DNA from: an uncultured delta proteobacterium | GTDB lineage: Bacteria > Myxococcota_A > Polyangia > Polyangiales > Houyiibacteriaceae | NCBI GenBank assembly: GCA_963699755.1 | Contig: CAVOVB010000001.1 | Span: 192,001 to 256,000 of the forward strand | Reading direction: 5' to 3' | Length of the DNA: 64,000 nucleotides | Shown: positions 30,974 to 52,260 of the stretch, piece after piece | Position numbering within the stretch: position 1 is the first letter of the stretch | Layout: each line of letters starts with the position of its first letter | The notes under the pieces: model-generated | The model's database searches: none | Told to the model about the DNA's origin: nothing | What the model saw: only the letters and a program-made list of their open reading frames with translations | Program-made: the position numbers and the translations under genes

Positions 30974-31069
30974 AAAAGCGCACCCCATTCGCTCGCGAAG
31001 GAGCGCCGACGAAAGCCATGGCGACCTACTTCCGTGCCGTTGCAGTTTTCAGAGAGTAGACTGGACCGC

Positions 31070-31873: not shown

Positions 31874-31880
31874 CTCTCAG

Positions 31881-33047
31881 TCACTCGCGCGACGGCCCAA
31901 GCAGGTTTCGCTCGAGGATGAGGTCGGCGGCACCCTCCCCCACGATGCGATTGCCAAGTGGCGTGAAGTGACCGTGGGATCGCTCCCAATAGAGCAGCTC
32001 GCCTTTTCGTTCTTCGAACATGGGGAGCGGCGAGAATAGGTTGAAGTCCTCGAATCCCGGACCGAGCGGATAGGCCGAGCGGAAGGTCGTACGGTTCAGG
32101 CGTTCGGGGATGTCGATGATCAGGAGCTCGGCGCCTCCGTCTCGACTCACTTGGTCGATCTGTCTCAGGATTGCCAGCGTGAGACGCTCGGCGTAGCTGA
32201 CGTCCTCTGCCGACTCTTCCGCCGTTTCTTGGCGCAGATCGGCCTCGGGTGCGGGTGCGGGTGCGGTGGGCTCCAGTTGCTTTGCCTGTGCAGCAGCCGA
32301 CTGCGCATCACGGATGTCCGCCAGCACGGTCTTCACCGCCTCGCCGACCTTGTCACGGAACCAGTTGTAGAGCTGGCTATGCCCGGCGAGGAAACGGTAC
32401 AGCGGGATGCGGAAGAGGATTTCGCGGCTCTTCACCGCAGGCAGGAAGGTCTCGGCGGCGCGTGTCAGCTTGCCATCCTGAAGGTCGAAGAGCCCGCTTC
32501 GAACGTTGTCGTCTAGGTCGGTGCCGTGCCAGCCAATCAGAACCAGGTCGGGCTCGTACTTCATGCCTTCGGCCTGCAGCGCAACCAGCTCTTCCGCGTT
32601 TCCGAATCCGGAAACCGCGAGGTTCACCAGCTCAACATCCTCGCCGGCCGCTCGGAGCCGTTCCACCATGACGTTGAGCAACATCTCGTCCGGGTGAGCG
32701 CCATATCCCATCAGGAACGAGTCGCCGAGAGCAACGATCCGCTTCTTTGCGTTCGGTTTCTCGTATGGAATCTCTCGGTCGCTGCGGATGCCCTTGGAGT
32801 TGGTTTGGATCTGGATCTCGTAGTCGGGCGTCGTGTGCGCATAGCTCTGATTCGGCATGTTCATGCGAACGCCATACTCGGCGCTCGCGATGTACCGGGG
32901 CAGCATCGGAACCGGGGCATAGATTCGCAGGAACAGCTCGGACAGGAGCAGCACGAATGCGCAAAGCGCAACGTAGGTCAGGATGCGGCGCAGCCTCGAC
33001 GGCCCGCCGGATCTTGGATTCGAAGTCTTGGTGCGGTCAGAAGGCAA
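31881..33047 (-). CDS. SGNH/GDSL hydrolase-fold protein (AlgJ/AlgX/PatB-like), membrane anchored
   Basis: N-terminal TM, TNSKGIR, LGDSFLMG, NLAVSG and GHFTPLG motifs. Confidence 0.8.
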   Translation of the reverse strand: MPSDRTKTSNPRSGGPSRLRRILTYVALCAFVLLLSELFLRIYAPVPMLPRYIASAEYGVRMNMPNQSYAHTTPDYEIQIQTNSKGIRSDREIPYEKPNAKKRIVALGDSFLMGYGAHPDEMLLNVMVERLRAAGEDVELVNLAVSGFGNAEELVALQAEGMKYEPDLVLIGWHGTDLDDNVRSGLFDLQDGKLTRAAETFLPAVKSREILFRIPLYRFLAGHSQLYNWFRDKVGEAVKTVLADIRDAQSAAAQAKQLEPTAPAPAPEADLRQETAEESAEDVSYAERLTLAILRQIDQVSRDGGAELLIIDIPERLNRTTFRSAYPLGPGFEDFNLFSPLPMFEERKGELLYWERSHGHFTPLGNRIVGEGAADLILERNLLGPSRE

Positions 33048-34710: not shown

Positions 34711-34715
34711 CTAGG

Positions 34716-35510
34716 TCAGAGCTCCGCTCTATCGAGGCCGCGCTCGAGCGCATCCGTCAAAAAGGGGGTCAGTCGTGCTGAGAGCGCCTGATACCCCGCC
34801 TCGTTGATGTGGAAATCGTCGACGATGAACTCGGCGCGCATGCGGCCTCGATCCGAGAAGATCCGATCGCAGTCGAAGACCCGCACGCCGGACTCGTCCA
34901 GCCTCCTCAGGCGCTGGTTGATGTCGGCCACAGCGGTCAGTGTCTCGTTCGACCAAATCGGATATCGGAGCGGGTGAACATCGCCGACCGGAAAGATCGT
35001 GAGCACCACCAGCGGGATGCCGCGGGCTTGGATTCGGTCGATGATCTCCCGCAGGTTGGCCCAGCAGTTATCGACGATTTCCTGCGAGCGGCTGCGAAAC
35101 ACGCCCATCGCCTTCAAGTCGTTGATTCCGGTCTCGAGGACGACCATCCTGGGCTCGCGCTCGATGATGTCAGCGTCCAGGCGTGCCAGGAGCTGAGCGG
35201 TCGTCTCCCCGTAGCGACCCAGGTTGAGCACCTGAAGGCCAGCAAGGCTCGGCGGCGCCGGCAAGGATGCGATCCGCGAATCACCTGCGAAGAGGAGGGC
35301 GAGCTTCGCCCGATCGGCGGCCGGCCCCGGGTTCCCGGGTGCCGGTGGCGGTCCGCTCTTCGCAAGGTCCAAGCGCAGCCAGAGATCCGCCCGGTAGGCC
35401 GATAGGGAGCGCGCCCCCTGCACGCCGGCGACGAAGATTGCGATGGCTGCGGCGACTAGACCGAGGCGCACCGGCGCGCTTTTCGAAGATTTGCCAGGCG
35501 ATGAGCTCAT
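34716..35510 (-). CDS. SGNH/GDSL hydrolase-fold protein
   Basis: N-terminal TM, AGDSR, NLGRYGET, GIND and DDFHINEAGY motifs. Confidence 0.85.
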   Translation of the reverse strand: MSSSPGKSSKSAPVRLGLVAAAIAIFVAGVQGARSLSAYRADLWLRLDLAKSGPPPAPGNPGPAADRAKLALLFAGDSRIASLPAPPSLAGLQVLNLGRYGETTAQLLARLDADIIEREPRMVVLETGINDLKAMGVFRSRSQEIVDNCWANLREIIDRIQARGIPLVVLTIFPVGDVHPLRYPIWSNETLTAVADINQRLRRLDESGVRVFDCDRIFSDRGRMRAEFIVDDFHINEAGYQALSARLTPFLTDALERGLDRAEL

Positions 35511-36061: not shown

Positions 36062-37729
36062 ATGGCCCACGGCAGCAGCCTCGACGCGGAATCGCTCCGG
36101 CTCGTTCTCGATTCACTGGACGATTTCGCCAGGGCGAACCTGAGCGATGAAAAGCTCCTCGAGCTCGACGAGAAGGACATCTTTCCCGAAGAGCTCGTGC
36201 GGGCGATCGGCAGTGAGGAGCTCGGCGTGCAGCTGGTGTTCATCCCCGAAGAGCACGGCGGGATGGGCGGTGGTGCCTTCGACGTCTACCGTGTCTGTGA
36301 GGCCATGGCTCGAATCGACGTCGGTCTGGCGACCGGCGTCTTGGCGACCTTTCTCGGTAGCGATCCGATCGTCTTCGGGGGTACCGCCGAGCAGAAGGAG
36401 TACTGGCTGAGCCGCATCGCTGAAGAGGGATTGCTGATGGCCTACGGGGCGACCGAGCCCGCTGCCGGCAGTGACCTCGCGGCGCTCAAGACAGTCGCCG
36501 TACCCGTCGAAAAGGACGGGCAGGTCGTCGGGTACGAAATCACAGGGAACAAGCAGTGGATCTCCAACGGCGGTCGAGCGGATGTCTACACGGTGCTCGC
36601 GAAAGCGCCCGGCGGGCCGACCTGGTTCGTGGTGGAGCGAGGGGCTGAAGGCTTTACGTCAGGCAAACCAGAGGACAAGCACGGGATCCGGCTGAGCAAC
36701 ACCACGGCGCTCATCCTCGAAAACGTCTACGTCGATGCCGATCGGCTCGTCGGGCTCGAAGAGGGTCAGGGATTGCGGCAGGCGCAGCTCGTCTTCGGCT
36801 TCACGCGACTCATGGTGGCGGCCTTCGGTCTCGGCGCGGGCTGGGCGGCACTCGACCGGACGATTCAATACTCGACCGAACGGATTCAAGGCGGCTCGCC
36901 GCTCTCGGAAAAGCAGGGCTACACGCACAAGCTGATCATTCCTCATGCGGTACGTCTCGAGGCAGCGCGCGCCTACATCGAGCAAACGGCCGAGGCCATC
37001 GACAAGGGCGGCGACGAGCTCCTGAATACCGAAGGCGCGATCGCCAAGTACCTAGCCACCGAGGCCGGAAACGCCGCAGCGGAAGCAGCGATTCAAGGTC
37101 ACGGCGGCTACGGGTACACCAAGGAGTACATGGTCGAGAAGATCAAGCGCGACGTACGCATCACGACGATCTACGAAGGCACTTCGGAGATCATGGAGAT
37201 GACGATCGGTCGCGATCGCTGGCAGCTGCACCTCAAGACGCGGGGCCAGCACTACCACGATCTCGGGCGGCGGCTCGAAGGGGTACACCGCGAACATCCC
37301 GAGGCCGGCGCCGGCATCGCCGCTTTGGGAGCGCACGCTCTTGCGGAAATCATGGAGCGTGCGCGCGCCAAACGGCTCACGCGCAATCAGCACGTGCTTT
37401 TTCGGATTGGGGAGCTGGCTTCCTATGTGGAAGGCGCGGCGGCGTTTGCTCGCCGAGCGGTCCGCGCAGAGGTCGACGCGCTCGACCCGAAGGCCCCAAA
37501 ACGATTTTCCCCTCCGGCGCTCGCCGCGATGGCTCGAGTCTTTGCACGCGAAGCCGCTCAGCACGTTGCCATAGACGGCATGCGCTGGATCGTGGGTGCC
37601 GAGGACCCAGGAGATGCGGACAGCCAATCGCTCGAAGCGAGCGCAGGACTGTCCAAAGTTTATGCAGCCCAGGTGGGGTTGATCGATGACATGAATCAAG
37701 TGGGGGATGCGCTCTATGAGCGCTCCTGA
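36062..37729 (+). CDS. Acyl-CoA dehydrogenase with C-terminal extension
   Basis: [32 protein letters not shown] and catalytic IYEGTSEI motifs. Start revised to ATG 36062 after GGGAG. Confidence 0.92.
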
Positions 37730-37747: not shown

Positions 37748-40700
37748 ATGCGAGACAAAGTACATCGAGCGATAGCCATCGTCGGAGTTGGCGCGGTGCT
37801 GCCCGACGCACAGAATGCCGATGAATTCTGGAACAACGTATCGACGGGCCGCTACAGTATCAGCGAGACCCCGGTCGATCGATGGGATCCGTCCCTCTAC
37901 TACGACCCCGATCCGAAGGCCCCGGACAAGACCTACTCGAAGATCGGCGGCTGGGTCCGCGACTTCGACTGGGATCCACTCAAGTGGAGGCTTCCGATTC
38001 CGCCCAAGGTCGCAGACTCGATGGATCGGACGCAGAAGTGGTCGATCATGTCGGCCCGGGAAGCCTTGTTGGACTACGGCTACCCGGAGCGTCCGCTCGA
38101 CGGCGACCGGACGGCGGTGATCCTCGGCAACGCGATGGCCGGCGACCAGCACTACAAGACCGCGCTTCGCATTTTCTTCCCCGAGTTCACCCGTGAGCTG
38201 GATGGCGCAGAGAGCTTTCAGGCGCTTCCGCAGTCGGTCAGGGCCGCGATCGTCGAAGAGACGATGGGGCGAATGCGAGAGCACTTCCCGAGCATCAGCG
38301 AGGACACGATGCCGGGCGAGCTGGCGAACATCATCGCTGGTCGCGTCGCTGCGGTGTTCAACTTCCACGGCCCAAACTTCACCGCCGACGCGGCCTGCGC
38401 ATCGGCAATGGCCGCCTTCAGCGCGGCGATCTCGGGCCTCGAAGAGGGCGACTACGATGCAGTGCTGACCGGCGCTGTCGACAGCAACATGAGCGCATCG
38501 AGCTACACGAAGTTCTGCAAGATCGGTGCGCTCTCGGCGACCGGAACACGACCGTATGATCAAGGCGCAGACGGCTTCGTGATGGGCGAAGGGGCGGCGG
38601 TCTTCCTGCTGAAGCGGTTGGAAGACGCCGAGGAGGCCGGCGATAAGATCTACGCCGTGGTTCGGGGAATCGGAGGGTCGAGCGACGGCAAGGGCAAGGG
38701 GATCACCGCGCCCAACCCCATTGGGCAAAAATTCGCCATCGAACGGGCCTGGGCGCATGCCGGCGAAGATCTAGCAACGGTGAGCCTGATCGAAGGCCAC
38801 GGTACCTCGACACGGGTGGGTGATGTGGTCGAGGTGCAGAGCATGGTCGACGCGTTCGCCGGTGCTGGCGTACCCAACTCGAGCATTCCGATCGGCTCGG
38901 TGAAGTCGAACATCGGGCACCTCAAGGGAGCCGCCGGAGCGGCCGGCCTCCTAAAGGCCGCCCTCGCGCTGCACCACAAGCAGTTGCCGCCGAGCATCGG
39001 GCTCCGGACCCCCAACCCCAAGATCGGCTTCGGCCAGATCCCCTTCTACGTCAACACGGAGCTCCTGCCTTGGGACGACTACAAAGAGGTCCGCAGGGTC
39101 GGCGTGAGCGCCTTCGGCTTCGGAGGAACGAACTTCCATGCGGTCCTCGAAGAGCACGTGCCGGGAAGGATTGAGCGCAAGAATCGAACCTCCGTTGCGG
39201 TGCCATCGGGGTCCGCTCTACCGCTGGCTTCCGGCGGCGTTCCGATGGCGGATAAGGCGCCGTTGCGTGGTTCGCTGGTGCTCGGCGCAGGCTCGACGGC
39301 GGAGCTAGCGATCAAGCTCGAAGCGGTGCTCGAAGAGGCGAAGACAGGGCACGCGCCCGATCGCAAGCCACCAGAAGCTTCCGATCTCAAGGCCGTAGAG
39401 CGTATCGCCATCGACTTTGGCGACGCCGCCGAGCTCGCAAAGAAGGCCACGAACGCCCTCAAGGGGCTCCGCGCAGGCAACGCTGCGATCTGGAAGGCGC
39501 TCCGGCCGCAGGGCATCTTCCATCAAACCGGCCCGGCGCCGAAGACCGCGTTCCTCTACACCGGTCAGGGCTCCCAGTACGTGAACATGTTGCGCGAGCT
39601 TCGCGAGGTGGAGCCGATCGTGGCCGACACCTTCCGGGAAGCCGACGAGGTGATGAAGCCGCTCCTCGGCCAACCTCTGAGCGAGATTGTTTTCGTGGAC
39701 CCGAGCGACCAGGCTGCCTTGGCCGAGGCTGACGAGGCGCTTCGTCAGACCGCGATCACGCAGCCCGCCGTGCTGGCAACCGACTTGGCGCTCACCCGAT
39801 TGCTGGCGGCCTATGGCGTCACGCCGGACATGGTCATGGGACACAGCCTCGGGGAGTACGGTGCACTGGTGGCGAGCGGTGCCCTCGGTTTTCGGGAGGC
39901 GCTCGAAGCGGTCAGCGCGCGCGGCCGCGAGATGACCAAGGTCTCGGTTGATGACAACGGCTTGATGGCTGCAGTTCTCGCGCCGATCGATGAGGTTCAG
40001 GCCATCGTGAGCTCACTCGATGGCTATGTCGTCATCGCCAACATCAATAGCTTCGGCCAGTCAGTCATCGGCGGGACGACGCCTGGCGTGACGGCGGCGG
40101 TGGAGGCGATCTCCAAGGCGGGATATCAGGCGATCCCCTTGCCGGTGAGCCATGCGTTCCATACCAAGGTGGTCGCCCCAGCGAGCGAACCGCTCATGAA
40201 AGAGCTGGCTCGCCTCGGCGTCGAATCCCCGAAGATCCCGATCGTCGCGAATGTGAGCGGCGAGTTCTATCCGATGGGTCCGAACGTGGCAGCGGAGATG
40301 ATCGAGATCCTCGGCCAGCAAATCGCTTCGCCGGTGCAGTTCGTCAAAGGTCTAGAGACTCTATACGACGCCGGGGCGCGTATCTTCGTCGAAGTCGGTC
40401 CGAAATCGGCGCTGGCTCGCTTCGCCGATGATGTGCTGGGCAGCAAGTCCGACACCCTTTCTTTGTTCACCAACCATCCGAAGATCGGCGATGTTCCGGC
40501 GTTCAACGCCGCGCTCACCGGTCTTTATGCGAGCGGGCACGGCGCTCCGAGAAGCGAACGGAGGGCGCCGGAGCTGAGCAACGACGGGGTGCCCCGGCGC
40601 GTGGCGATACCTAGCGCACCGCCCGCACCGCTCCGGGCCCCCGCAGCAATGCGTCCTGCGCGTCGGGCTGCCTCGGTGACGGCTGGGGGCGACCGCTATG

Positions 40701-43700
40701 CCCAGCTTGGCCGCTTGTTTGCGGAATTCCTCGATCAGGGGATGGAGATCTATCGCGGCGGGAGCCCTGCCGATTCCGGAGAACCGGTCGTGGTCACGGG
40801 AGCCAGCATCGGCCTACCGGGCGGCGCCAAGGTTTTCGCGGACAGCAACGTCGATCGAATGCTGCACGGACAGACCTTCATCGACGTGATCCCGGTCGGG
40901 CTCAGGCGCGCCATCGCGGACAAGAAGATCACCCGACTGGTCAAGTCCGATAAAGGAGGGCCGCGTTTCGAAACGATCGACTCGCCCTCCGACGTGATCA
41001 AGCTCGCGGGCCGAGGCGGCGACATTGCTCTGAGCAGCGACTTCGGCATTCCGGAGGAACGCGCCGCCGCAATGGACTCGACCACACGGATGGCGATCGC
41101 CGCAGGCGTCGAAGCCTTGCGAGATGCGGGAATCCCCCTGGTCATGCACTACAAGACCACGTCGAAGGGGACCAAACTTCCGGACCGCTGGGGCCTGCCC
41201 GTCTCCATGCAAGACGAGACCGGGGTGATCTTCGGCTCGGCATTCCCGGGCTCCGACATGCTCATCGGCGAGGTTCGCCGATACTTCGAGAGCAGGACAC
41301 AAGAGAAGCTTCTCGAAGAGCTACGAAGCCTCCGCATGCGCATGGCGGGCAATGGCAGCAACCCGTTGGCGGCCGAAATCGACCGCCGCATGGCAGAAAT
41401 CGAAAGCGATCTCCAGCGAGATCCGTACACGTTCGACCGTCGATTTCTCTTCAAGGCGCTGTCGATGGGGCACTCCCAGCTCGCCGAGTACATCGGTGCG
41501 CGAGGGCCCAACACCCAAATCAACTCCGCCTGCGCCAGCGGCACCCAAGCGGTTTCACTCGCCGAAGATTGGATTGCGCGCGGCCGTTGCAAGCGTGTGA
41601 TCATCGTCACCGCCGACAACGTCACCAGCGACAACATGATGGAATGGGTGGGCTCCGGTTTCCTCGCGAGCGGTGCGGCGGCTACCGACGAAGTTCTCGA
41701 AGAAGCCGCCCTGCCCTTCGATAGACGCCGCCACGGGCTCATTCTCGGGATGGGTGCCTCCGGCATGGTGATCGAGACCGCCGAGGCAGCGCGAGAACGA
41801 GGGCTGAGGCCCATCGCCGAGGTGCTCGGCACCGTCACCGCGAACAGCGCCTATCACGGTAGCCGCTTGAACATCGAGCACATCCAAAGCCTGATGGAGA
41901 AGCTCATCGCGGACTGCGAAGCGCGGCACGGCATCGATCGCGCCGAGATTGCGCCTCAGACCGTCTTCGTCTCGCACGAGACCTACACGCCTGCTCGTGG
42001 CGGTAGCGCCCAGGCGGAGATCAGCGCGCTTCGTACCGTATTCGGCGCCAACGCAGACCGCATCGTGATCGCGAATACCAAGGGCATGACGGGCCATGCG
42101 ATGGGCGCGGGCGTGGAAGACGCGACCGCGGTCAAGATCCTCGAGACGGGGATGATCCCGCCGGTTGCGAACTTCAAAGAGGTCGATCCGGAGCTTGGGA
42201 TGCTCAATCTTTCCAGGGGCGGGAGCTATCCCGTGCAGTATTCGCTTCGGCTGGGAGCCGGCTTTGGGTCTCAGATCAGCATGTCGCTTACCCGATGGGT
42301 CCCGAGCCCGGACGGACGCCGAGCCGCGCCGCGGGACTTGGGCTATGCAACGCGGATCGAGGACCGGGCTCGGTTCGAGCGTTGGCTCGCGGAAGCGAGT
42401 GGGTACGCTTCGCCCGAGCTGGAGGTTGTGGGTCGAACGCTGCGCGTGAAGGACCAGGGGCCTGCAGCGGGGACAGTCTCAGTGCCAGCGCCAGCACCAG
42501 TGCCAGCACCAGTGCCAGCGCCAGCACCAGTGCCAGCGTCAGTGCCAGCGCCAGTGGCAGCGCAAGCGACCGCGCAAGCGAGCGCGCTTGCGAGCGACCC
42601 AGTGACCGAGAAGGTCTTGGCGATCGTTTCGGCGCAGACCGGGTATCCTCCCGATATGTTGGACCTCGAGCTCGATCTCGAGGCGGATCTTGGAATCGAT
42701 ACGGTCAAGCAGGCGGAGACCTTTGCGGCCGTTCGCGAAGCCTATGACATCGAGCGCGACGACAAGCTCGAGCTGCGCGCGTTTCCGACGCTCCAGCATG
42801 TCGTTCAGTTCGTGCGGGACCGGCGGCCGGACCTCGTGACAGTGTCAGCTCCAGCGTCAGTGCCAGCGTCAGTGCCAGCGACCGCGCAAGCGAGCGCGCT
42901 TGCGAGCGACCCAGTGACCGAGAAGGTCTTGGCGATCGTTTCGGCGCAGACCGGGTATCCTCCCGATATGTTGGACCTCGAGCTCGATCTCGAGGCGGAT
43001 CTTGGCATCGATACGGTCAAGCAGGCGGAGACCTTTGCGGCCGTTCGCGAAGCCTATGACATCGAGCGCGAGGACAATCTCGAGCTGCGCGCGTTTCCGA
43101 CGCTCCAGCATGTCGTTCAGTTCGTGCGGGACCGGCGGCCGGACCTCGTGACAGTGTCAGCTCCAGCGTCAGTGCCAGCGTCAGTGCCAGCGTCAGCGAC
43201 AGCGACAGAACCCATCTCGGAGAAGGTGTTGGAGCTCGTCTCGGGGGTTACGGGCTACCCGCCGGATATGCTCGACCTCGACCTGGACCTCGAGGCCGAC
43301 CTCGGAATCGACACGGTGAAACAAGCGGAGACCTTCGCGGCGGTGCGTGAAGCGTACGGCATCCCGCGCGACAACAAGCTCGAGCTTCGGGACTTCCCGA
43401 CGCTCAACCACGTCATCGCCTGGGTGAAGAACTCCTTGCCAGAGGCCGATTCGGCCAGCGAGGCCGAGGCGAGCATCGCTTCGCCCTCAGCACCCGCGAC
43501 TCCTGAATCGACCGACGGACTTCGCCGCGTTCCGGTGCCTGTGCTCCGGCCGCCGCTATCCTTCTGCAAACCGACGGGCGTCAAGCTCGACGAAGGAGTG
43601 CGCGTCGTCGTCATGGTGGACCAGGGTGGCGTCGCAAAGGCCCTGATCAAGCAACTCAAGAAGCGCGGTGTTCAAGTCCTTGGCATCGATGGTGTTCCGT

Positions 43701-45994
43701 CCGCGGACGAGCTCATCGCGACGCTCGAAGGCTGGATGAACGAGGGTCCGATCCGCGGCGTGTACTGGCTAGCGGGTCTCGATCGAGAGGAGGCGATAGC
43801 GGACCTTTCTCCGGAGGCCTGGGCCACGGCGGTGCAGCTGCGGGCTAAGCTCTTGTTCGCCACGATGGGTTCGCTCTATGAGCAGGTCTCAGCGCCGGGC
43901 ACGTTCCTGGTCTCGGCGACGCGTCTCGGCGGCAAGCATGGCTTCGACCCGAACGGGGCGATCGCGCCACTAGGCGGCGCAGTCAGCGGCTTCACCAAGA
44001 CGTACAAACGCGAGAAGCCCGAAGCCACGGTGAAGGTCGTGGACTTCGGAGCCAAAGCCAAGGTCGCCGCAGTAGCCGAACGGCTCATCGCCGAAACGCT
44101 CTCGGATCCAGGGGTATGCGAGCTCGGCTACGTGGGGGAGGAGCGCTGGGCGATTACGGCATCGTTCGGAGCGCTGCCATCCGAACGTCCGCTACCGCTT
44201 GGAAAAGATACGGTCTTCGCGATTACGGGTGCCGCGGGCTCGATCGTCTCAGCGATCGTCGACGACCTGGCGAAGGCGTCGTCCGGAGGGACCTTCCACC
44301 TGCTCGACCTGACGCCGAAGCCCGATCCAAGCGACCCGGACCTCCAACGCTTCGCAAGCGATCGCGATGGTCTTCAGCGCGAGCTCTTCGAGCGCCTGAA
44401 GCAAGGCGGACAAAAGGCGACGCCCGTTGTCGTGCAACGATTGCTCGGTGAGCTCGAGCGGAAGCACGCCGCGCTTCAGGCAATCCAATCGGTTCGCGCG
44501 GCAGGCGGCGAAGTGCACTACCATTCGGTCAACCTGCTCGACAAAGACGCGGTGGCTTCAGCGGTCGACGCCATTCGCAAGCAGAGCGGCAGAATCGACG
44601 CCCTGGTGCATGCAGCCGGTCTCGAGATCAGCCACTACCTGCCCGACAAGAAGCCGGCTGAGTTCGATCTGGTCTTCGACGTGAAGGCAGGCGGCTGGTA
44701 TCACCTCTTGTCGTCGATTGGAGACATGCCGCTCGGCGCCGCGGTAGTCTTCAGCTCGATCGCGGGCCGATTCGGCAACGGCGGTCAAACCGACTACAGC
44801 GCCGCCAACGAGCTCCTGGCGAAGTCGGTCTCGAGCTTCCGCAACGCGCGGCCGGAGACCCGAGGCATCGCCATCGACTGGACAGCCTGGGCAGACATCG
44901 GGATGGCTTCCCGCGGTTCGATTCCAAAGATGATGGAGCTCGCCGGCATCGACATGCTCAAGCCCGCAGATGGCATCCCGGTCGTACGCGACGAGCTGGA
45001 AGCAGGGACTCGCGGGGAAGTCGTCATCGGCGGCGCGCTCGGCATCTTGATGCAGGACTGGGACGAGAGCGGCGGGCTCGACGCGAGCAAGCTAGAGGGC
45101 ATCCCCCAAGGGCCGATGGCCAGACGCCTTGTCTCGATGGGCGTGCACACGGGGCTCATCGTGGAGACCATGCTCGATCCAAGAGAGCAGCCTTTCCTCT
45201 ACGACCACAGGATCGGCGGCACAGCCGTGCTTCCGGGTGTCATGGGCATCGAAGGCTTTGGGGAGATTAGCAAAGCCTTGTTCCCGGACTGGCACATCAG
45301 GGCGATCGAAAACGTCGATTTTCTCGCGCCCTTCAAGTTCTATCGTGACGAACCGCGCGCGCTCACCTTGAGTGCCCAGTTCGGCACCGATGGTGACGAT
45401 CTCTTGGCTATCTGCAAGTTGATCGGCGCGAGGACGATCATGGGCAAAGAAGAGGTCAAAACGCACTTCACCGCGACGGTTCGGCTCGCACGCAAGCCGG
45501 TCGACACTGAGAAATCCGACGCGCCGGCCTCTGCGGCGGGAACGACGGTGAAGGACGAAGACATCTACCGAGTGTACTTCCACGGCCCGGCCTACCAGGT
45601 GCTCGACACGGCCTGGCGCGACGACGGAATGGTCGTGGGACGAATGAGCGACACGCTCCCTGGGGATCATCAACCAGCGGAGCTCGAGCTGCTCACTGAG
45701 CCTCGGCTCGTCGAGCTCTGCTTTCAAACCGCAGGGGTCTGGCAGATCGGCACGACGGGTCGAATGGGACTCCCACAACACATCGATCAGCTGACCATCG
45801 TGAGACCGGCGGACCAGGCTGAAGGGCGGCTGCATGCAGTCGTCAGACCCAAGGACGGCGGCAGGTCCTACGACGCACAGGTCACGGACGAAGCCGGCAA
45901 TCTCTACGTGGCACTCCGCGGCTACCGGACTGCCGAGCTTCCTGATGACGTGGACCCGGACAAGCGACAACCGCTGCGCGCCGCGATGGATTGA
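37748..45994 (+). CDS. Type I polyketide/fatty acid synthase, KS-AT-KS-ACP-ACP-ACP-KR-DH (PfaA-related)
   Basis: KS1 DAACAS / EGHGTST / NIGHL. AT GQGSQ, GHSLG, HAFH. KS2 NSACAS / SHETYT / TGHAMG. Three ACPs with TGYPPDML...DLGIDTVKQAE. KR FSSIAG..GQTDYSAAN. DH DHRIGGTAVLP. Confidence 0.93.
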   Translation: MRDKVHRAIAIVGVGAVLPDAQNADEFWNNVSTGRYSISETPVDRWDPSLYYDPDPKAPDKTYSKIGGWVRDFDWDPLKWRLPIPPKVADSMDRTQKWSIMSAREALLDYGYPERPLDGDRTAVILGNAMAGDQHYKTALRIFFPEFTRELDGAESFQALPQSVRAAIVEETMGRMREHFPSISEDTMPGELANIIAGRVAAVFNFHGPNFTADAACASAMAAFSAAISGLEEGDYDAVLTGAVDSNMSASSYTKFCKIGALSATGTRPYDQGADGFVMGEGAAVFLLKRLEDAEEAGDKIYAVVRGIGGSSDGKGKGITAPNPIGQKFAIERAWAHAGEDLATVSLIEGHGTSTRVGDVVEVQSMVDAFAGAGVPNSSIPIGSVKSNIGHLKGAAGAAGLLKAALALHHKQLPPSIGLRTPNPKIGFGQIPFYVNTELLPWDDYKEVRRVGVSAFGFGGTNFHAVLEEHVPGRIERKNRTSVAVPSGSALPLASGGVPMADKAPLRGSLVLGAGSTAELAIKLEAVLEEAKTGHAPDRKPPEASDLKAVERIAIDFGDAAELAKKATNALKGLRAGNAAIWKALRPQGIFHQTGPAPKTAFLYTGQGSQYVNMLRELREVEPIVADTFREADEVMKPLLGQPLSEIVFVDPSDQAALAEADEALRQTAITQPAVLATDLALTRLLAAYGVTPDMVMGHSLGEYGALVASGALGFREALEAVSARGREMTKVSVDDNGLMAAVLAPIDEVQAIVSSLDGYVVIANINSFGQSVIGGTTPGVTAAVEAISKAGYQAIPLPVSHAFHTKVVAPASEPLMKELARLGVESPKIPIVANVSGEFYPMGPNVAAEMIEILGQQIASPVQFVKGLETLYDAGARIFVEVGPKSALARFADDVLGSKSDTLSLFTNHPKIGDVPAFNAALTGLYASGHGAPRSERRAPELSNDGVPRRVAIPSAPPAPLRAPAAMRPARRAASVTAGGDRYAQLGRLFAEFLDQGMEIYRGGSPADSGEPVVVTGASIGLPGGAKVFADSNVDRMLHGQTFIDVIPVGLRRAIADKKITRLVKSDKGGPRFETIDSPSDVIKLAGRGGDIALSSDFGIPEERAAAMDSTTRMAIAAGVEALRDAGIPLVMHYKTTSKGTKLPDRWGLPVSMQDETGVIFGSAFPGSDMLIGEVRRYFESRTQEKLLEELRSLRMRMAGNGSNPLAAEIDRRMAEIESDLQRDPYTFDRRFLFKALSMGHSQLAEYIGARGPNTQINSACASGTQAVSLAEDWIARGRCKRVIIVTADNVTSDNMMEWVGSGFLASGAAATDEVLEEAALPFDRRRHGLILGMGASGMVIETAEAARERGLRPIAEVLGTVTANSAYHGSRLNIEHIQSLMEKLIADCEARHGIDRAEIAPQTVFVSHETYTPARGGSAQAEISALRTVFGANADRIVIANTKGMTGHAMGAGVEDATAVKILETGMIPPVANFKEVDPELGMLNLSRGGSYPVQYSLRLGAGFGSQISMSLTRWVPSPDGRRAAPRDLGYATRIEDRARFERWLAEASGYASPELEVVGRTLRVKDQGPAAGTVSVPAPAPVPAPVPAPAPVPASVPAPVAAQATAQASALASDPVTEKVLAIVSAQTGYPPDMLDLELDLEADLGIDTVKQAETFAAVREAYDIERDDKLELRAFPTLQHVVQFVRDRRPDLVTVSAPASVPASVPATAQASALASDPVTEKVLAIVSAQTGYPPDMLDLELDLEADLGIDTVKQAETFAAVREAYDIEREDNLELRAFPTLQHVVQFVRDRRPDLVTVSAPASVPASVPASATATEPISEKVLELVSGVTGYPPDMLDLDLDLEADLGIDTVKQAETFAAVREAYGIPRDNKLELRDFPTLNHVIAWVKNSLPEADSASEAEASIASPSAPATPESTDGLRRVPVPVLRPPLSFCKPTGVKLDEGVRVVVMVDQGGVAKALIKQLKKRGVQVLGIDGVPSADELIATLEGWMNEGPIRGVYWLAGLDREEAIADLSPEAWATAVQLRAKLLFATMGSLYEQVSAPGTFLVSATRLGGKHGFDPNGAIAPLGGAVSGFTKTYKREKPEATVKVVDFGAKAKVAAVAERLIAETLSDPGVCELGYVGEERWAITASFGALPSERPLPLGKDTVFAITGAAGSIVSAIVDDLAKASSGGTFHLLDLTPKPDPSDPDLQRFASDRDGLQRELFERLKQGGQKATPVVVQRLLGELERKHAALQAIQSVRAAGGEVHYHSVNLLDKDAVASAVDAIRKQSGRIDALVHAAGLEISHYLPDKKPAEFDLVFDVKAGGWYHLLSSIGDMPLGAAVVFSSIAGRFGNGGQTDYSAANELLAKSVSSFRNARPETRGIAIDWTAWADIGMASRGSIPKMMELAGIDMLKPADGIPVVRDELEAGTRGEVVIGGALGILMQDWDESGGLDASKLEGIPQGPMARRLVSMGVHTGLIVETMLDPREQPFLYDHRIGGTAVLPGVMGIEGFGEISKALFPDWHIRAIENVDFLAPFKFYRDEPRALTLSAQFGTDGDDLLAICKLIGARTIMGKEEVKTHFTATVRLARKPVDTEKSDAPASAAGTTVKDEDIYRVYFHGPAYQVLDTAWRDDGMVVGRMSDTLPGDHQPAELELLTEPRLVELCFQTAGVWQIGTTGRMGLPQHIDQLTIVRPADQAEGRLHAVVRPKDGGRSYDAQVTDEAGNLYVALRGYRTAELPDDVDPDKRQPLRAAMD
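42478..42560 (+). repeat. Hexamer-based tandem repeat (ccagtg/ccagcg/ccagca) encoding a Pro-Ala-Val linker
   Basis: Encodes VPAPAPVPAPVPAPAPVPASVPAP before ACP1. Shorter copies occur between the ACPs. Confidence 0.85.
42569..43192 (+). repeat. Near-identical 312-bp tandem duplication (ACP1 + ACP2)
   Basis: Units start at 42569 and 42881, with only about 3 substitutions seen by eye. Confidence 0.92.
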
Positions 45995-46000
45995 CGAACG

Positions 46001-49000
46001 ATGGGCAATTCGAGCTTCGAGCGAGTCGCCATCATCAACCGCGGGGAGCCCGCCATGCGGTTCATCATCGCCGCGCGGGAATATGAGCAGGAGCATGGCG
46101 AGCGGCTTCACACGATCGCCCTGTACACCGATCCCGACCGACGAGGAATGTTCGTGCGCGAAGCCGACGAGGCTTACTCGCTCGGCCCGGCGACCTACCT
46201 CGCAGATGGCGGCTACCACAAGTCGAGCTACCTCGACTATGCACGTCTCGAACGCGCCCTCATCGAAACACGGGCCGAGGCCGTATGGCCCGGCTGGGGC
46301 TTCGTTGCGGAGCACGCCGCGTTCGCGGACCTCTGTGAGCGCTTGGGAATCGTATTCATAGGACCGACCGGCGACATGATGCGCAAGCTCGGCGACAAGA
46401 TCACGTCCAAGCAAATCGCCGAGGGGGCCGAGGTGCCGGTGGCCCCCTGGAGTGGTGGCGAAGTCGCAACTCTGGACGATGCGCGTCTGCATGCCGGACG
46501 ACTCGGGTACCCCTTGATGATCAAGGCTACCGCGGGCGGCGGCGGCCGTGGGATTCGACGCGTGCAGAGCGAAAGCGAGCTGGCCGATGCCTTTCAGAGC
46601 GCTCGCTCCGAGGCGGAGAAGGCATTCGGGAACGGTGCCGTCTTTCTGGAACGTATGGTCACCGGAGCGCGACACGTCGAGGTCCAGGTCATTGCAGACG
46701 ACGAGGGCACGGCGTGGGCGTTGGGGGTGCGGGACTGCACCATTCAACGGCGCAATCAGAAGATCCTCGAAGAGACGCCATCCCCGGTCTTGACGCCCGA
46801 GCAACAGCTCGAGCTCGAGCAAGCAGCGGTCCGTCTCACGCAGGCCATCGGTTATCGCAACGCGGGAACGGTCGAGTTCCTCTATCACAAAGGGACGAAG
46901 CAGTTCTCTTTCATGGAAGTCAACGCGCGGCTCCAGGTCGAGCACCCCGTCTCTGAAATGGTGACCGGCGCCGATCTCGTGAAGCTTCAGATTCATGTCG
47001 CGCGTGGCGGCCGCCTCGACGCCCAGCCCCCGACGAAACGCGGGCACGCGATTGAGGCGAGACTCAACGCAGAAGACCCAGAAGACAACTTCGCTCCATC
47101 GCCAGGCCTGATCGAGCAACTGAGATTGGTCAGTGGCCCTGGCCTCCGGGTGGACACCGGCATCGCGGAGGGCGACCAGATTCCATCCGAGTTCGATTCG
47201 ATGATCGCCAAGATCATCGCCCACGGTCGCAACCGCGATGAAGCGATGGCTCGGCTCCGGCGCGCTCTCTTGGAGAGCGAGGTCGTGATCCGCGGGGGCA
47301 CCTCGAACAAAGGCTTCCTGCTCGGGTTGATCGACAACCCGGCTGTCGTGTGCAGTGAGGTCGATGTGGGCTGGGTCGATCGATTGGTCGCAGAGGGCAA
47401 GCACCTGCCGCGCGAAGGTGCTGAGATCGCACTGCTCCAGGCCGCCATCGAAACCTATGGAGCCGAGCTCGAGGTCGAGCGGGCGCAGTTCTACTCCTCT
47501 GCAGCTCGCGGACGCCCAAAAGTCGAAGACCGGCACGGCCATGCCATGGAGCTCACCTACGCGGGGAACACCTACGAGCTGACTGTTTATCGCCTCGGTG
47601 CGCGCCGCTACCGCATCGATGTCGACGGCCAGCGGGTCGAAGCGCTGGTCGATCGGTTCGAGGGCGCGGAACGAAGACTGCGCGTAGGCGAGCAGAATTT
47701 CCGCATCCAGTCGGTCGACCAGGGCCTGAGCGTGCGCGTGGAGGTCGACGGTGTGCCGCACCGCATTTCTCGCGACCGTGGCGGTCTGGTACGCGCCCCA
47801 TCGCCGGCTGTCGTCGTCAACGTCCTCGTTTCGGAGGGTCAGGACGTCAACGTGGGCGACGGTCTCGTCGTTCTCGAGGCCATGAAGATGGAGATGGTCA
47901 TCGGGGCGAAATTCGCGGGCAGGGTGCGCGAGGTCATGGTGACGAACAACGTGCAGCTGGCGGTCGGTGCGCCGATGCTGCTCATCGAACCGCGCGGGGG
48001 GGAACAAAGATCTGCGACCAGCGAGCGACTGGAATTCTCCGATCTCGTCGAATCGCGCGATTCGAACTGGTCGGCATCGCGCCACAACCTGAGGGAGCTT
48101 CGACGCTTGATCATGGGCTTCGATGCGGACCGTATCGAGCTGTCGCGCGAAATGGGAGGCGGAGAGACCCTCAGTGCTGACGCGGCGCCGGACGACCCGG
48201 AGCGCATCGCCTACGAGGACGAGACGCTGGAGATCTTCGTCGACCTGACCTCGCTGTTTCGGCGCCATTCACAGGATGAAGACGGGTCGGAGGATTTCGG
48301 CAAACATACCGCAGAGGAATACCTCTTCACGTTTCTCCGCGACCTGGTCGTTCACCGTGAGGAAGATCTACCGCAATCGTTCGTCACCAAGCTCCGCCGG
48401 GCCCTCGGCCACTACGGAATAACCGAGATTCGGCGGAACGCGGAGCTACAAGGCGTGCTTTTCCGTATTTGTAAAGGCAACAATCGCGTCGACGAGCAGA
48501 TCGCCCCCATCCTGAGCTTGCTGCAGAACCGCCTCGACCATGTGGGGCTACTTCGCGAGCGTGCTAGCGATGAGTTCCGTGCCATTGTCTCTCGTCTGAT
48601 CGTCGAAACGCAGGACCGATACCCAGCCGTTCATGATCTGGCGCGGGAGCTTCAGTATCACTACTTCGAGCGGCCGATTCAGGAAGAGGTGGCGAGCCGG
48701 GCGCTGAAACGGGCCGAGGAAATCCTTTCTGGCCTACCCATCGAGGCAGGGGCGGCCGACAAGGCCGCTCGCGTTGCCGAGCTCGTCGCGATTCCTCATC
48801 CCCTCAAGGGATTCATGTCTCGGAGGCTCGCTCAGGCGAGCCGCGATGAGCGCTGGCTGATGCTCGAAGCCCTCGCCCGCCGCTACTACAAGATGAGTGA
48901 GCTGCACGATTTCGAGCTCCAGTCCGAGGCGGGAATCGACGTCTCGAGCTGCTGGTACGAGTACGAGGGGCAGAGGATCCACTTTCTCGCGACGCACGTG

Positions 49001-51562
49001 AGTGGAGCGCAGTTGCGCGAAGCCATCACCGTGCTGAACCGCCGACTCGAGTCCGTGCCCGCAGGGGAAGACGTCGTCGTAGACTACTACGTATTGCACG
49101 AGGACGAGCTCGAGGGCCCCGACAAGACTTCCGACGGACTTCGGAGGCTACTGGAGGCGGCACCGCCTACACGTCCGGTTCGGCGAATCATCGTGTCCGT
49201 GACCGGAAGCGAAACCGGGCTCGGTGCCAATGAGCTACAGGCCTTCACGTTTCGTATGAAGGACGGTAGCTTCGAAGAAGAGCTCATCTACCGCGGAATG
49301 CACCCGATGTTGAGCAAGCGGCTCTTTTTGTGGCGCTTGAAGGACCTGAAGACCGAGCGCGTCGAGTCCGCCGAAGACGTCTACCTGTATCGAGTGACCG
49401 GAAAGGACGAGCGCCTCATTTGCCTCGCCGAGGTCCGCGATCTCACACCCGTTCGCGATGGGTCGGGGCGTGTGGTCGCGCTGCCAAGTCTGGAACGCAC
49501 GCTGTCGAAGTGCCTGGTCGAGATCCGGCGCGAGCAGAGCACCCGGCCTCCCAACAAGCGTTACCAGTGGAATCGGGTCCACCTCTTCCTCTGGCCGCCG
49601 CTCGACATCAGCCAAGACGAGATCAACGGCCTCATTCACAAGCTGGCGCCGGAGACGACCGGCCTCGGGCTCGAGCGGATCGTCGTCCAGGGCGACATCC
49701 GCAATCCTACGACCGGCGAGCTCGAGCAGAAGCTCATAGACGTGTCCAACCGGGGACGCAGCGGGCTCCAGATCCGCCTACGCGAGCTTCCGACCCAGCC
49801 CATGCGACCGCGGAGCGCATACGAGCAGACCGTGGTCCGCTTGCGTCAGCGCGGTCTGACGCACCCGTACGAGATCATCGCCATGCTCACGCCGGGTGAG
49901 GACAGCGCGGTCCAGTCGGATTTCCCGCGCGGCCTGTTCCAAGAGCTCGATATGAACGAGGCCAACGAGCTCGTGCCTGTGGACCGACCGCCGGGCAGCA
50001 ACGAGGCCAACATCATCGTCGGACTGATCACGAGCTATACGGACAAGTATCCCGAGGGCATGACTCGCGTCGCACTCTTGGGCGATCCGAGCCGGGACAT
50101 GGGGGCCTTGGCCGAACCTGAATGTCGACGGATCATCGCGGCCCTCGACCTCGCAGAGCAAATGCATGTGCCACTCGAGTGGTACGCAGTTTCCGCTGGA
50201 GCGAAGATCTCCATGGAGAGCGGTACCGAGAACATGGACTGGATCTCCGCCGTCCTGCGAAGACTGATCGAGTTCACACAAGCCGGGCTCGAGGTCAACG
50301 TGCTGGTCTGCGGCATCAATGTGGGTGCCCAGCCGTACTGGAACGCCGAAGCGACAATGCTGATGCACACCAAGGGCATCCTGGTGATGTGTCCCGGCAG
50401 CGCGATGGTGCTCACGGGCAAGCATGCGCTTGACTACTCGGGCGGCGTCTCGGCCGAAGACAACACGGGCATCGGCGGCTACGACCGAGTAATGGGTCCG
50501 AACGGCCAGGCGCAGTACGCCGCGCGCGACCTTGCGGATGCGTGTCACATCTTGCTTCGGCACTACGAGCACAGCTACGTGATGCCCGGCGAGCGCTTCC
50601 CCCGGCGCCTGGCCACCAGAGATGCCATCGACCGCGATGTCTGCGATTCGCCGCACGGTCGCATTGGCGCATCGAGCTTCGCAACCGTGGGCGAGGTCTT
50701 CAACCCAGAAACCAATCCGGGACGGAAGCGACCGTTCGACATTCGCAAGGTCATGCGCGCGGCCACCGACCAGGACCACGAGGTGCTCGAGCGCTGGTAT
50801 GGGATGCGCGACGCCGAGACAGCGGTGGTCTGGGACGCACACGTCGGTGGCTATCCGGTCTGCATGATCGGCCTCGAGTCACAGCCCCTGTCGCGGCTCG
50901 GTTTCGTGCCCGCGGACGGGCCTACGGTCTGGACGGCGGGCACCTTGTTTCCGATGTCGTCGAAGAAGGTCGCCCGAGCGATCAACGCTGCAAGCAACAA
51001 CCGCCCGGTTGTCGTGCTGGCAAATCTTTCCGGCTTCGACGGCTCGCCTGAATCGTTGAGGCTGCTGCAGCTCGAGTACGGCGCCGAGATTGGCCGCGCG
51101 GTGGTCAACTTCAAGGGGCCCATGGTGTTCCTGGTCATCTCTCGCTATCACGGCGGGGCGTTCGTCGTGTTCTCCAACAAGCTCAATCCCTCCTTGGAGG
51201 TGTCGGCTCTCGAAGACACCTACGCATCGGTGATCGGTGGCGCACCCGCAGCAGCCGTGGTCTTCGCAGGGGACGTTCGCAAACGAACCCTCTCAGACGA
51301 ACGAATCATCGCGCTTCAGCAACGGCTCGACGCGGCCCAAGGCGCCGAACGCCTGGTTTTGGGTGACCGACTCACGAAGATGCAGAAGGTGGTCCATTCG
51401 GAGAAGCTTCGGGAGGTCGCCGAGGAGTTTGACAGCGTCCATAGTGTGCATCGCGCGCTCGAGGTGGGTTCGGTTCACAAGATCATCCCGGCGAGCACAC
51501 TGCGACCGTACCTCGTGGATGCGATCGAACGCGGAATCCGACGCGAGCTGGCCGAGGGATGA
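46001..51562 (+). CDS. Single-chain multidomain acetyl/acyl-CoA carboxylase (BC-BCCP-central region-CT)
   Basis: BC motifs NRGE, PGWGF, GGGGRG, EVNARLQVEH. Biotinyl EAMKM at about 47876-47890. Long central region. CT motifs SAGAKI, LANLSGFDG, HGGAFVV. Confidence 0.92.
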   Translation: MGNSSFERVAIINRGEPAMRFIIAAREYEQEHGERLHTIALYTDPDRRGMFVREADEAYSLGPATYLADGGYHKSSYLDYARLERALIETRAEAVWPGWGFVAEHAAFADLCERLGIVFIGPTGDMMRKLGDKITSKQIAEGAEVPVAPWSGGEVATLDDARLHAGRLGYPLMIKATAGGGGRGIRRVQSESELADAFQSARSEAEKAFGNGAVFLERMVTGARHVEVQVIADDEGTAWALGVRDCTIQRRNQKILEETPSPVLTPEQQLELEQAAVRLTQAIGYRNAGTVEFLYHKGTKQFSFMEVNARLQVEHPVSEMVTGADLVKLQIHVARGGRLDAQPPTKRGHAIEARLNAEDPEDNFAPSPGLIEQLRLVSGPGLRVDTGIAEGDQIPSEFDSMIAKIIAHGRNRDEAMARLRRALLESEVVIRGGTSNKGFLLGLIDNPAVVCSEVDVGWVDRLVAEGKHLPREGAEIALLQAAIETYGAELEVERAQFYSSAARGRPKVEDRHGHAMELTYAGNTYELTVYRLGARRYRIDVDGQRVEALVDRFEGAERRLRVGEQNFRIQSVDQGLSVRVEVDGVPHRISRDRGGLVRAPSPAVVVNVLVSEGQDVNVGDGLVVLEAMKMEMVIGAKFAGRVREVMVTNNVQLAVGAPMLLIEPRGGEQRSATSERLEFSDLVESRDSNWSASRHNLRELRRLIMGFDADRIELSREMGGGETLSADAAPDDPERIAYEDETLEIFVDLTSLFRRHSQDEDGSEDFGKHTAEEYLFTFLRDLVVHREEDLPQSFVTKLRRALGHYGITEIRRNAELQGVLFRICKGNNRVDEQIAPILSLLQNRLDHVGLLRERASDEFRAIVSRLIVETQDRYPAVHDLARELQYHYFERPIQEEVASRALKRAEEILSGLPIEAGAADKAARVAELVAIPHPLKGFMSRRLAQASRDERWLMLEALARRYYKMSELHDFELQSEAGIDVSSCWYEYEGQRIHFLATHVSGAQLREAITVLNRRLESVPAGEDVVVDYYVLHEDELEGPDKTSDGLRRLLEAAPPTRPVRRIIVSVTGSETGLGANELQAFTFRMKDGSFEEELIYRGMHPMLSKRLFLWRLKDLKTERVESAEDVYLYRVTGKDERLICLAEVRDLTPVRDGSGRVVALPSLERTLSKCLVEIRREQSTRPPNKRYQWNRVHLFLWPPLDISQDEINGLIHKLAPETTGLGLERIVVQGDIRNPTTGELEQKLIDVSNRGRSGLQIRLRELPTQPMRPRSAYEQTVVRLRQRGLTHPYEIIAMLTPGEDSAVQSDFPRGLFQELDMNEANELVPVDRPPGSNEANIIVGLITSYTDKYPEGMTRVALLGDPSRDMGALAEPECRRIIAALDLAEQMHVPLEWYAVSAGAKISMESGTENMDWISAVLRRLIEFTQAGLEVNVLVCGINVGAQPYWNAEATMLMHTKGILVMCPGSAMVLTGKHALDYSGGVSAEDNTGIGGYDRVMGPNGQAQYAARDLADACHILLRHYEHSYVMPGERFPRRLATRDAIDRDVCDSPHGRIGASSFATVGEVFNPETNPGRKRPFDIRKVMRAATDQDHEVLERWYGMRDAETAVVWDAHVGGYPVCMIGLESQPLSRLGFVPADGPTVWTAGTLFPMSSKKVARAINAASNNRPVVVLANLSGFDGSPESLRLLQLEYGAEIGRAVVNFKGPMVFLVISRYHGGAFVVFSNKLNPSLEVSALEDTYASVIGGAPAAAVVFAGDVRKRTLSDERIIALQQRLDAAQGAERLVLGDRLTKMQKVVHSEKLREVAEEFDSVHSVHRALEVGSVHKIIPASTLRPYLVDAIERGIRRELAEG

Positions 51563-52260
51563 CGATACGCTGGCTGCTCCTTCCAAGCTCTGACTTGCCC
51601 GAGGGAGACGCCTGGCTCGCCGCGAGTGAGCGGGAGGTCTTGGCCGGACTTCGCTTTCCGAAGCGGCGTTCAGAGTGGAGGCTCGGGCGCTTTGCGGCCA
51701 AGAAGGCCCTTGCCTCCTGGACGGGGATCGACGCCCTCGATCGAATTCAGGTCATCGGCGCCGAGGACGGCGCCCCGGAGGCATTCATCGACGGAAAGAA
51801 GATCGAGTCGGGCATCTCGATCAGCCATCGCGAGGGGCTGGCTGCCTGCGTCATTGCGTCACACACGAGCGTCGGTTGTGATCTCGAGGTCATCGAGCGG
51901 CGAACATCCCGTTTCGTGAATGACTTCTTCACCGATCGCGAGCGCACAGAGGTTCATACGACGCAAGATGCCCTACGCGATCGTCTCGTCGCCCTCACCT
52001 GGAGCGCCAAGGAGAGCGCACTCAAAGCCCTGCGCGTAGGGCTACGCCGCGATACCCGCAGCGTCGAGGTCGAGATCGATGACCTCGAGACCACTGAACC
52101 AGGTTGGCATCCCCTGCGGACCAGAGTCAGCCCGGAAGGTTTCACTTTCCGAGGCTGGTGGCGCCAAGAGGAGGGCATCGTTTTCAGCGTCGTTCTTCCT
52201 TCCACGGCCAGAATCGCGTTTGCCGGTCCTCACTCTCTTGTGGCCATCAGGACTTCGTGA
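51559..52260 (+). CDS. 4'-phosphopantetheinyl transferase (Sfp-type)
   Basis: SISH, GCDLE and WSAKESALKA motifs. ATGA overlap with the carboxylase stop. Confidence 0.9.
   Translation: MTIRWLLLPSSDLPEGDAWLAASEREVLAGLRFPKRRSEWRLGRFAAKKALASWTGIDALDRIQVIGAEDGAPEAFIDGKKIESGISISHREGLAACVIASHTSVGCDLEVIERRTSRFVNDFFTDRERTEVHTTQDALRDRLVALTWSAKESALKALRVGLRRDTRSVEVEIDDLETTEPGWHPLRTRVSPEGFTFRGWWRQEEGIVFSVVLPSTARIAFAGPHSLVAIRTS

Follow-up and report, generated by a model that had tools for sequence, protein, structure and literature searches.

The question raised by this locus is whether a synthase that carries two ketosynthase (KS) domains in one chain uses both of them for condensation. We analysed a window of 64,000 nucleotides (positions 192,001–256,000, forward strand, of contig CAVOVB010000001.1) from assembly GCA_963699755.1 of an uncultured delta proteobacterium; all coordinates below are those of the window. 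The synthase gene (open reading frame 37748..45994, + strand) encodes an iterative type I protein of 2,748 residues, in which Pfam identifies a KS, an acyltransferase (AT), a second KS, carrier domains, a ketoreductase (KR) and a double-hotdog dehydratase (DH). The order KS1-AT-KS2-ACP-ACP-ACP-KR-DH (ACP, acyl carrier protein) is that of the Type R / CexF family. In print the second KS is labelled inactive, yet it retains all catalytic residues, and its sequence makes it likely that KS2 works alongside KS1.

KS2 (40781..42301, +) is called as a ketosynthase by PF00109 at 40781–42301 (E 2e-18), and its best family match is FabF (TIGR03150, E 7e-42; 143.6 bits, below the cut-off of 493.75). The triad given in a preliminary description of this DNA is found where it was placed: the Cys of NSACAS at nucleotide 41531 is C1262, the His of SHETYT at 41975 is H1410 and the His of TGHAMG at 42095 is H1450; K1445, F1506 and Glu1411 are the other active-site positions of interest. 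An AlphaFold model of residues 1012–1518, built from a 71-row alignment, shows a complete KS fold (predicted local distance difference test score, pLDDT, 78.6; predicted template modelling score, pTM, 0.82), with pLDDT below 50 in the loop after SHET and in part of the cap. The long helical insertion that had been described is a two-helix hairpin in this model (domain residues 158–187 and 195–213). It is charged, lies in the cap region (about 41252..41419, +) and is some 45 residues longer than in FabF. Since KS1 and a PfaA KS also carry a shorter helical insertion at this site, what distinguishes KS2 is the length of its hairpin alone.

We followed the active-site residues of KS2 in a close set (the best 120 of 4,054 matches) and in a diverse set (the best 150 representatives of 50%-identity clusters). 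In the close set the C, H, E, T, Y and H are conserved in 120/120. Among the diverse representatives Cys is present in 148/150, the first His in 147/148 with coverage of the site, and Lys and the second His in 147/147. Glu1411, which replaces the Gly of HGT and gives the motif SHET, is kept in 147/148 representatives covering the site, and the gatekeeper Phe and two pantetheine-path Thr residues are conserved across the 150. A triad that varies among homologues had been named beforehand as the outcome that would count against KS2 activity; we find it nearly invariant. KS1 (37757..39163, +; C217-H351-H391) is equally intact in the representatives (Cys in 81/81 covered, both His in 83/83). The proposal of two active condensing sites stands on conservation, fold and phylogeny, by which both are intact, and it stands as a prediction for either domain; for KS2, we consider catalytic activity very probable.

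KS2 shares 22% identity with KS1 and 28% with Escherichia coli FabF, in agreement with the earlier statement that it is not a recent duplicate of KS1. Its best sequence and Foldseek matches are FabF. A wide fold search places the actinorhodin KS at the top (Z 40.5, root-mean-square deviation (rmsd) 3.1, 387 residues aligned), followed by two further type II KSs (Z 39.1 and 38.8) and FabF (Z 38.4, rmsd 2.8, 384 aligned); for type II KS-alpha and FabF as a whole, the rmsd is about 3 over 375–387 aligned residues. Scores are lower for type I KSs (33–35), mycobacterial fatty acid synthase (FAS; 29.4), the PfaC KS paired with its chain-length factor (CLF; 28.1), yeast FAS (27.9) and FabY (27.2). 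We set aside KS2 as a relative of FabY or FAS I because of this low fold rank (Z 27.2–29.4), although rank alone leaves kinship possible. In a quick IQ-TREE search with 73 rows, the 25 KS2 rows form one clade beside FabF/FabB (Shimodaira–Hasegawa-like approximate likelihood ratio test 100), apart from KS1, PfaA, the PfaC KS, the PfaC CLF and modular polyketide synthases (PKSs). The phylogenetic check suggested in the preliminary description thus puts KS2 on the FabF/FabB side, while KS1 is PfaA/type I-like.

By sequence and modelled fold, then, KS2 is type II (FabF/KS-alpha-like) in origin. It shares the KS fold, Cys-His-His, Lys and the Phe gate with FabF and type II KS-alpha, but is fused into a type I chain, carries about 100 residues of insertions and has SHETYT and GFGSQ in place of HGTST and GFGGTN. 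It is not, on these characters, a CLF of the polyunsaturated fatty acid (PUFA) type: Cys and His are kept, the domain follows the AT, the tree sets it on the same side as FabF, and its identity to a PfaC CLF is 16.5%. Several relatives have an extra KS1 copy between KS1 and AT. In one of them (P0221) this copy is degenerate and without catalytic His while KS2 is still intact, so that a CLF-like role would fall there to the KS1 copy; we infer that KS2 is not the chain-length partner of KS1. The three-KS variants (P0221, P0227, P0251, P0255–P0257, P0265 and P0267; P0178 and P0196) apparently have two separate origins.

The carrier domains depart from the canonical pattern. ACP1 (42599..42823, +; Thr1652, codon ACG, nucleotide 42701), ACP2 (42911..43135, +; Thr1756, nucleotide 43013) and ACP3 (43211..43435, +; Thr1856, nucleotide 43313) each read LGIDTVKQ, with Thr at the phosphopantetheine site, where a PfaA control reads LGIDSIKR. 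The canonical PF00550 Ser is thus missing from 3/3 ACPs. Thr occupies the site in 364/367 ACPs of the close set, in 331/352 ACPs of the representatives (12 are scored as Ser, in six proteins, one of them doubtful, and nine are unread or other) and in 356/358 ACPs of a Poseidoniales-like set; with the exception of a few copies that are unread or degenerate, the residue at this site is either Thr or Ser. The Thr aligns with Ser36 of E. coli AcpP and begins helix II in a single-sequence model, which is weak (pLDDT 63); at this low confidence the fold and the position of the site are otherwise ACP-like. An Sfp-type phosphopantetheinyl transferase (PPTase; 51559..52260, +), the predicted modifier of these carriers, is fused to the C-terminus of the synthase in many relatives. 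Because the synthases have a dedicated PPTase beside them or fused to them, and because CexF, a relative introduced below, is required for its product, we predict with good confidence that phosphopantetheine is Thr-linked on these ACPs. By eye, no PPTase residues specific to Thr-ACPs are evident in a 26-row alignment with just two Ser-type rows. A limited open-access search for Thr-linked phosphopantetheine, thin as evidence of absence, found only a paper on an S36T mutant (below), and threonine is not mentioned in the accessible portions of the Type R (PMC3098273) and celluxanthene (PMC12144888) texts.

The overall layout is already catalogued. According to Shulse and Allen (2011; PMC3098273), the Type R secondary lipid synthase is a single gene for KS-MAT-CLF-ACP(3–6)-KR (MAT, malonyl-CoA acyltransferase) with a PPTase and no known product, named from Koribacter, Solibacter, Elusimicrobium and Roseiflexus genomes. 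The order KS-MAT-(KS-like)-ACP(3–6)-KR in one gene recurs here, and the PPTase lies downstream with a carboxylase gene in between, as in Koribacter according to the same text. Relatives in metagenome-assembled genomes of Korobacteraceae and Solibacteraceae, two Type R families, match at 64–67%; the comparison consisted of these rather than of the five named Type R sequences. The present synthase differs in having an intact KS, type II-like, as the domain labelled 'CLF'; the upstream acyl-CoA dehydrogenase (ACAD) and a DH do not appear in the accessible Type R description. New here are the membership of CexF, the family-wide Thr-ACPs, the ACAD in a reductase slot and three closed genomes of one FabF-less family in which the synthase is the sole KS gene. 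A limited open-access search, which does not prove absence from print, found no paper under the description of a two-KS KS-AT-KS arrangement.

Behnken and Hertweck (PMC3250452) placed a two-KS PKS of Clostridium thermocellum closest to the Elusimicrobium PKS; this protein is CexF/FafF. Knockout and labelling show that CexF assembles phenylacetate and malonate units into a linear arylpolyene (PMC12144888), and the cexF knockout abolishes this arylpolyene, celluxanthene (flavoaffinin). In a legend, Kountz et al. (bioRxiv 10.1101/2025.02.08.637243) name KS, AT, CLF, ACP, KR and DH domains. We took the CexF sequence not from a deposited record but from a metagenome contig (L158), found with a published cexF primer (two of four matches were this locus, two were chance); the contig also contains two more cexF primer sequences and has its genes in the order that was published. 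Its frame of 2,770 codons reads KS1-AT-KS2-ACP3-KR-DH and is 31% identical to the window synthase over the whole length. The KS2 domains are 40% identical (E 7e-116), with NAACSS, SHETFS and TKGMTGH and an intact triad, and CexF nests among the KS2 rows of an unrooted tree. On this sequence comparison C. thermocellum CexF is a member of the synthase family, which therefore includes one member with a proven linear polyketide product. The two systems share domain order, the intact C/SHET/TGH KS2, three Thr-ACPs (3/3 in CexF) and a downstream PPTase. They differ in their accessory genes: two KASIIIs, a ligase, a free ACP and a hydrolase are encoded in the cex cluster, which lacks a reductase, but not beside the window synthase, where the operon instead encodes an ACAD and a single-chain carboxylase.

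The ACAD gene (36062..37729, +) starts at ATG 36062, preceded by GGGAG, and encodes 555 residues with Pfam ACAD domains, a YEGT catalytic motif and a C-terminal extension of about 170 residues. The enzyme is a candidate trans-acting enoyl reductase or starter desaturase. An ACAD lies upstream of the synthase in 73/73 loci with upstream DNA, within 700 bp in 72 and at about 710 bp in L080. More distant relatives are without it. Many of these have an N-terminally fused double FabK/PfaD-like barrel (PF03060) with a GGH motif in the second barrel; the fusion was seen in 8/14 selected proteins and in three further loci, and none of these three loci has the ACAD. Others have one, mostly His-less, barrel or nothing in this slot. 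A myxococcal subgroup (L127, L129–L132, L137, L139–L142) carries a single N-terminal FabK-like barrel, mostly without the catalytic His and without a Pfam match, which is probably what remains of the double reductase. That the ACAD acts as a reductase is suggested by one observation, its position in the slot of the fused FabK-like reductase. The ACAD-type members fall into one main clade, with a single outlier, and the swap therefore reflects few events, not many independent ones.

The gene downstream of the synthase (46001..51562, +) encodes a single-chain biotin carboxylase of 1,853 residues, likely the source of malonyl-CoA. It is an optional part of the cluster: a carboxylase follows the synthase directly in 48/62 loci and the PPTase in 13/62, one locus being undecided. 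Its layout, BC-BCCP-ACC_central-CT (BC, biotin carboxylase; BCCP, biotin carboxyl carrier protein; CT, carboxyltransferase), is eukaryote-like, and there is no second CT copy in the genome.

We put slightly better than an even chance on the following model as a whole, in which two working KSs are predicted to share the linear, iterative malonyl extension of chains on Thr-linked carriers. The carboxylase would make malonyl-CoA and the AT (39539..40522, +; GHSLG with S700, and an HAFH motif that we take to be of the malonyl type) would load the ACPs. KS2 would most likely take the starter and the early rounds, because no member has a loading module and FabH lies outside the operon, and KS1 would carry out the remaining rounds; KS2 would probably pair with itself, not with KS1. 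KR (43520..45007, +; structural and catalytic parts, Y2350) and DH (45110..45991, +; H2487, with Glu2656 at the usual Asp position) would process every round. The ACAD would then saturate the chain to a specialised acyl lipid, and relatives without a reductase, such as CexF, would make polyenes. Since a thioesterase (TE) is absent, release would be by an acyltransferase; the Pfam scan found neither a TE nor an acyl-AMP ligase in the synthase or operon, and none of the long representatives mapped has a loading or release domain. The ACPs themselves lie before the AT, between AT and KS2, or after KS2 in different relatives (L125, L126, L128, L134, L136, L138, L143–L156), so that their place in the chain is not fixed.

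PUFA synthases offer a precedent. PfaA and PfaC together resemble the present enzyme in the PfaA-like KS1, AT, tandem ACPs, KR, DH and two condensing domains. Here, in contrast, both KSs are in one chain, KS2 comes after the AT and has a type II origin, there is no CLF, FabA-type DH pair or PfaD, and the ACPs have DT and not DS. TIGR02813 (PfaA) gives 933 bits on the synthase against a cut-off of 1010; no pfaB, pfaC or pfaD partner lies within the window, and no other PfaC-like KS was found in the genome. The background statement that a second KS of PUFA synthases is normally an inactive CLF was incomplete, as it left out that PUFA synthases have two active KSs, which split their work by substrate (PMC11962503).

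Between the two uses first proposed for a second active KS, a division of labour in linear chains is supported by the CexF product and the PUFA precedent, whereas head-to-head or branching chemistry has less behind it and is in our view unlikely. KS2 would in that case join two chains by a non-decarboxylative or alkylmalonyl Claisen reaction to a branched beta-keto acid or long ketone, with Glu1411 as general base. OleA uses a Glu base for a reaction of the head-to-head type, and this precedent, the invariant Glu1411 beside the His in place of the HGT Gly, and a carboxylase gene adjoining the synthase would all fit. Celluxanthene formation also includes such a step, but the enzymes proposed for it (PMC12144888) are the separate KASIIIs of the cex cluster, which are absent here. 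The present synthase has a single malonyl-type AT and differs from Pks13-type condensases (ACP-KS-AT-ACP-TE with an acyl-AMP ligase) in domain order and in the lack of a TE and of a ligase in the operon; the carboxylase is not directly downstream in 14/62 loci, and genomes without any other KS gene would need ordinary chain building more. About as improbable is a KS2 that is catalytic without condensing and acts in the priming or unloading of the chain (from ACP to CoA, for instance) as a transacylase, decarboxylase or isomerase. Such an activity would compensate for the missing loading and release domains of the long representatives and would suit the non-canonical active-site loops, but KS2 keeps, with Cys, both His, Lys and Phe for malonyl decarboxylation, and dedicated transacylating or decarboxylating KSs usually lose a residue of that set.

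We think it very unlikely that KS2 is a structural CLF, as the 2011 and 2025 papers label it, and that the Thr-ACPs are inert scaffolds while a free ACP carries the chain. An S36T mutant of E. coli ACP cannot be pantetheinylated (PMC3340395), and free carriers are found in the own genome of the synthase and in four others (G156, G379, G428 and G310), both in line with such a scheme. It is opposed by the strictly conserved catalytic set of KS2, by its low identity to the PfaC CLF and position on the other side of the tree, by the adjacent or fused PPTase, and by one 94% complete genome (G464) in which the three Thr-ACPs are the sole PF00550 matches. A rival that would leave two active KSs in place has appreciably more weight, although we do not favour it: the ACAD may be oxidative and make an enoyl-CoA starter, the synthase product then being a polyene as for CexF. 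The CexF polyene needs no reductase, there is no electron transfer flavoprotein (ETF) gene in the operon, and the catalytic Glu is kept in 69/69 motif matches. Conversely, ACAD and fused FabK-like reductase share a slot and never occur together in the loci examined, and the best NCBIfam match of the ACAD, below cut-off, is acryloyl-CoA reductase.

Several observations weigh against the model of two KSs sharing linear extension, or against parts of it. How the rounds are assigned to KS1 and KS2 is guesswork. At positions that are conserved in FabF, KS2 has other residues (G304 is replaced by E, D311 by S and GGTN by GSQI), and its chemistry could, on sequence grounds, be altered; its stem in the tree is long (3.1), so that placement by a quick search may be biased. 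ACADs normally oxidise, and the missing ETF gene counts here too, as does the S36T result for the Thr-linked carriers. Three closed genomes (G156, G379 and G428) have neither a fused reductase nor this ACAD subfamily, but only FabK-like genes below cut-off, and the synthase core must therefore run without either. For the copies without an enoyl reductase in the family to which we refer as f29, we found no double-barrel enoyl reductase and no ACAD of this subfamily, only weak FabV-family matches and the below-cut-off FabK-like genes. Finally, the genome of the window keeps fabG-acpP-fabF and fabD, and just 11/25 genomes of the genus have the cluster, which is therefore accessory in its own genus.

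KS2 was found in those 11 genus genomes, in 106/401 phylum genomes sampled and in 11/101 genomes of one Chloroflexota class; the family also occurs in Acidobacteria, Elusimicrobia and Poseidoniales archaea. Replacement of FAS II was rejected both for the lineage of the window, on account of the fab genes just named, and for the Chloroflexota class, where FabF is present in 10/11 carriers and 68/69 non-carriers (80 of the 101 genomes). FabA and FabZ are scarce in both. The window genome (G000) has 0 matches, but the lack extends to members of the genus that do not carry the cluster: PF07977 matches occur in 3/10 other carriers and 6/14 non-carriers of the genus, just one of them full-length in these 24 genomes, and FabZ is found in 2/80 genomes of the class. 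Having FabF without FabA/FabZ, these groups must use another dehydratase. A near-identical fabD block occurs twice in the window genome (C1:1703000–1710000 and C7:292000–298000), which fits the 9% contamination of the bin.

Across the phylum FabF is present in 50/80 carriers, counted in 80 of the 106, with non-carriers taken from family f29 only. Within f29, KS2 occurs in 23/26 genomes and FabF over cut-off in 0/26; three fragmented genomes have neither. In the closed genomes G156, G379 and G428, and in G310, no full KS and no AT is encoded outside the synthase gene, and FabZ is absent; G296 has other PKSs, and FabH exceeds the cut-off in 2/5 of these genomes. G464, of the ACAD type, has no other full KS. 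We therefore hypothesise that the synthase is the primary fatty-acid synthase in FabF-less genomes, bearing in mind that these kin are not independent and that an evident reductase is absent. In predatory Bradymonabacteria, to which f29 may or may not belong, FabB/F and FabI are reported as missing and scavenging is assumed (PMC7460792). In archaea, the organism names given for the nearest 120 relatives of one protein (P0214) are all Poseidoniales or Euryarchaeota, and the KS2 motifs are kept in 120/120. Copies of the synthase are numerous in Poseidoniales (Marine Group II; P0214, P0293–P0411), on contigs of up to 2.0 Mb, and single records are labelled Asgard (P0154, with fused double reductase and PPTase) and Thermoplasmatota (P0246), by record label only. 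A limited open-access search on Poseidoniales and PKSs returned no title or abstract describing this synthase.

In the remainder of the window, the genes upstream on the opposite strand (31034–35510) encode two SGNH/GDSL proteins that flank a probable membrane O-acyltransferase frame (33037–34710), and a methyltransferase; as far as checked, they are not conserved beside related clusters. A reverse-strand run downstream (52519–58448) encodes an extracytoplasmic function (ECF) sigma factor, a Ser/Thr kinase, an Asp/Cys-rich repeat protein with a beta-helix and a secreted protein.

The family is large, and its second KS continues to be depicted as an inactive CLF. We tentatively suggest that it may be an unrecognised class of type I synthase, in which a PfaA-type KS and a captured FabF-type KS share one chain, Thr-linked pantetheine is attached by the system's own PPTase and the reductase slot is swappable (none, ACAD or fused FabK-like); such enzymes may make polyenes in some hosts and serve as primary FAS in lineages without FAS II, possibly including Marine Group II archaea. 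The link to CexF provides a cultured host, a knockout system and a coloured read-out, and through it the role of KS2, the presence of pantetheine on threonine and the acyl chains of genomes without FabF and FabZ become testable. For pathway engineering and protein labelling, Thr-specific pairs of PPTase and ACP would also provide an orthogonal tool.

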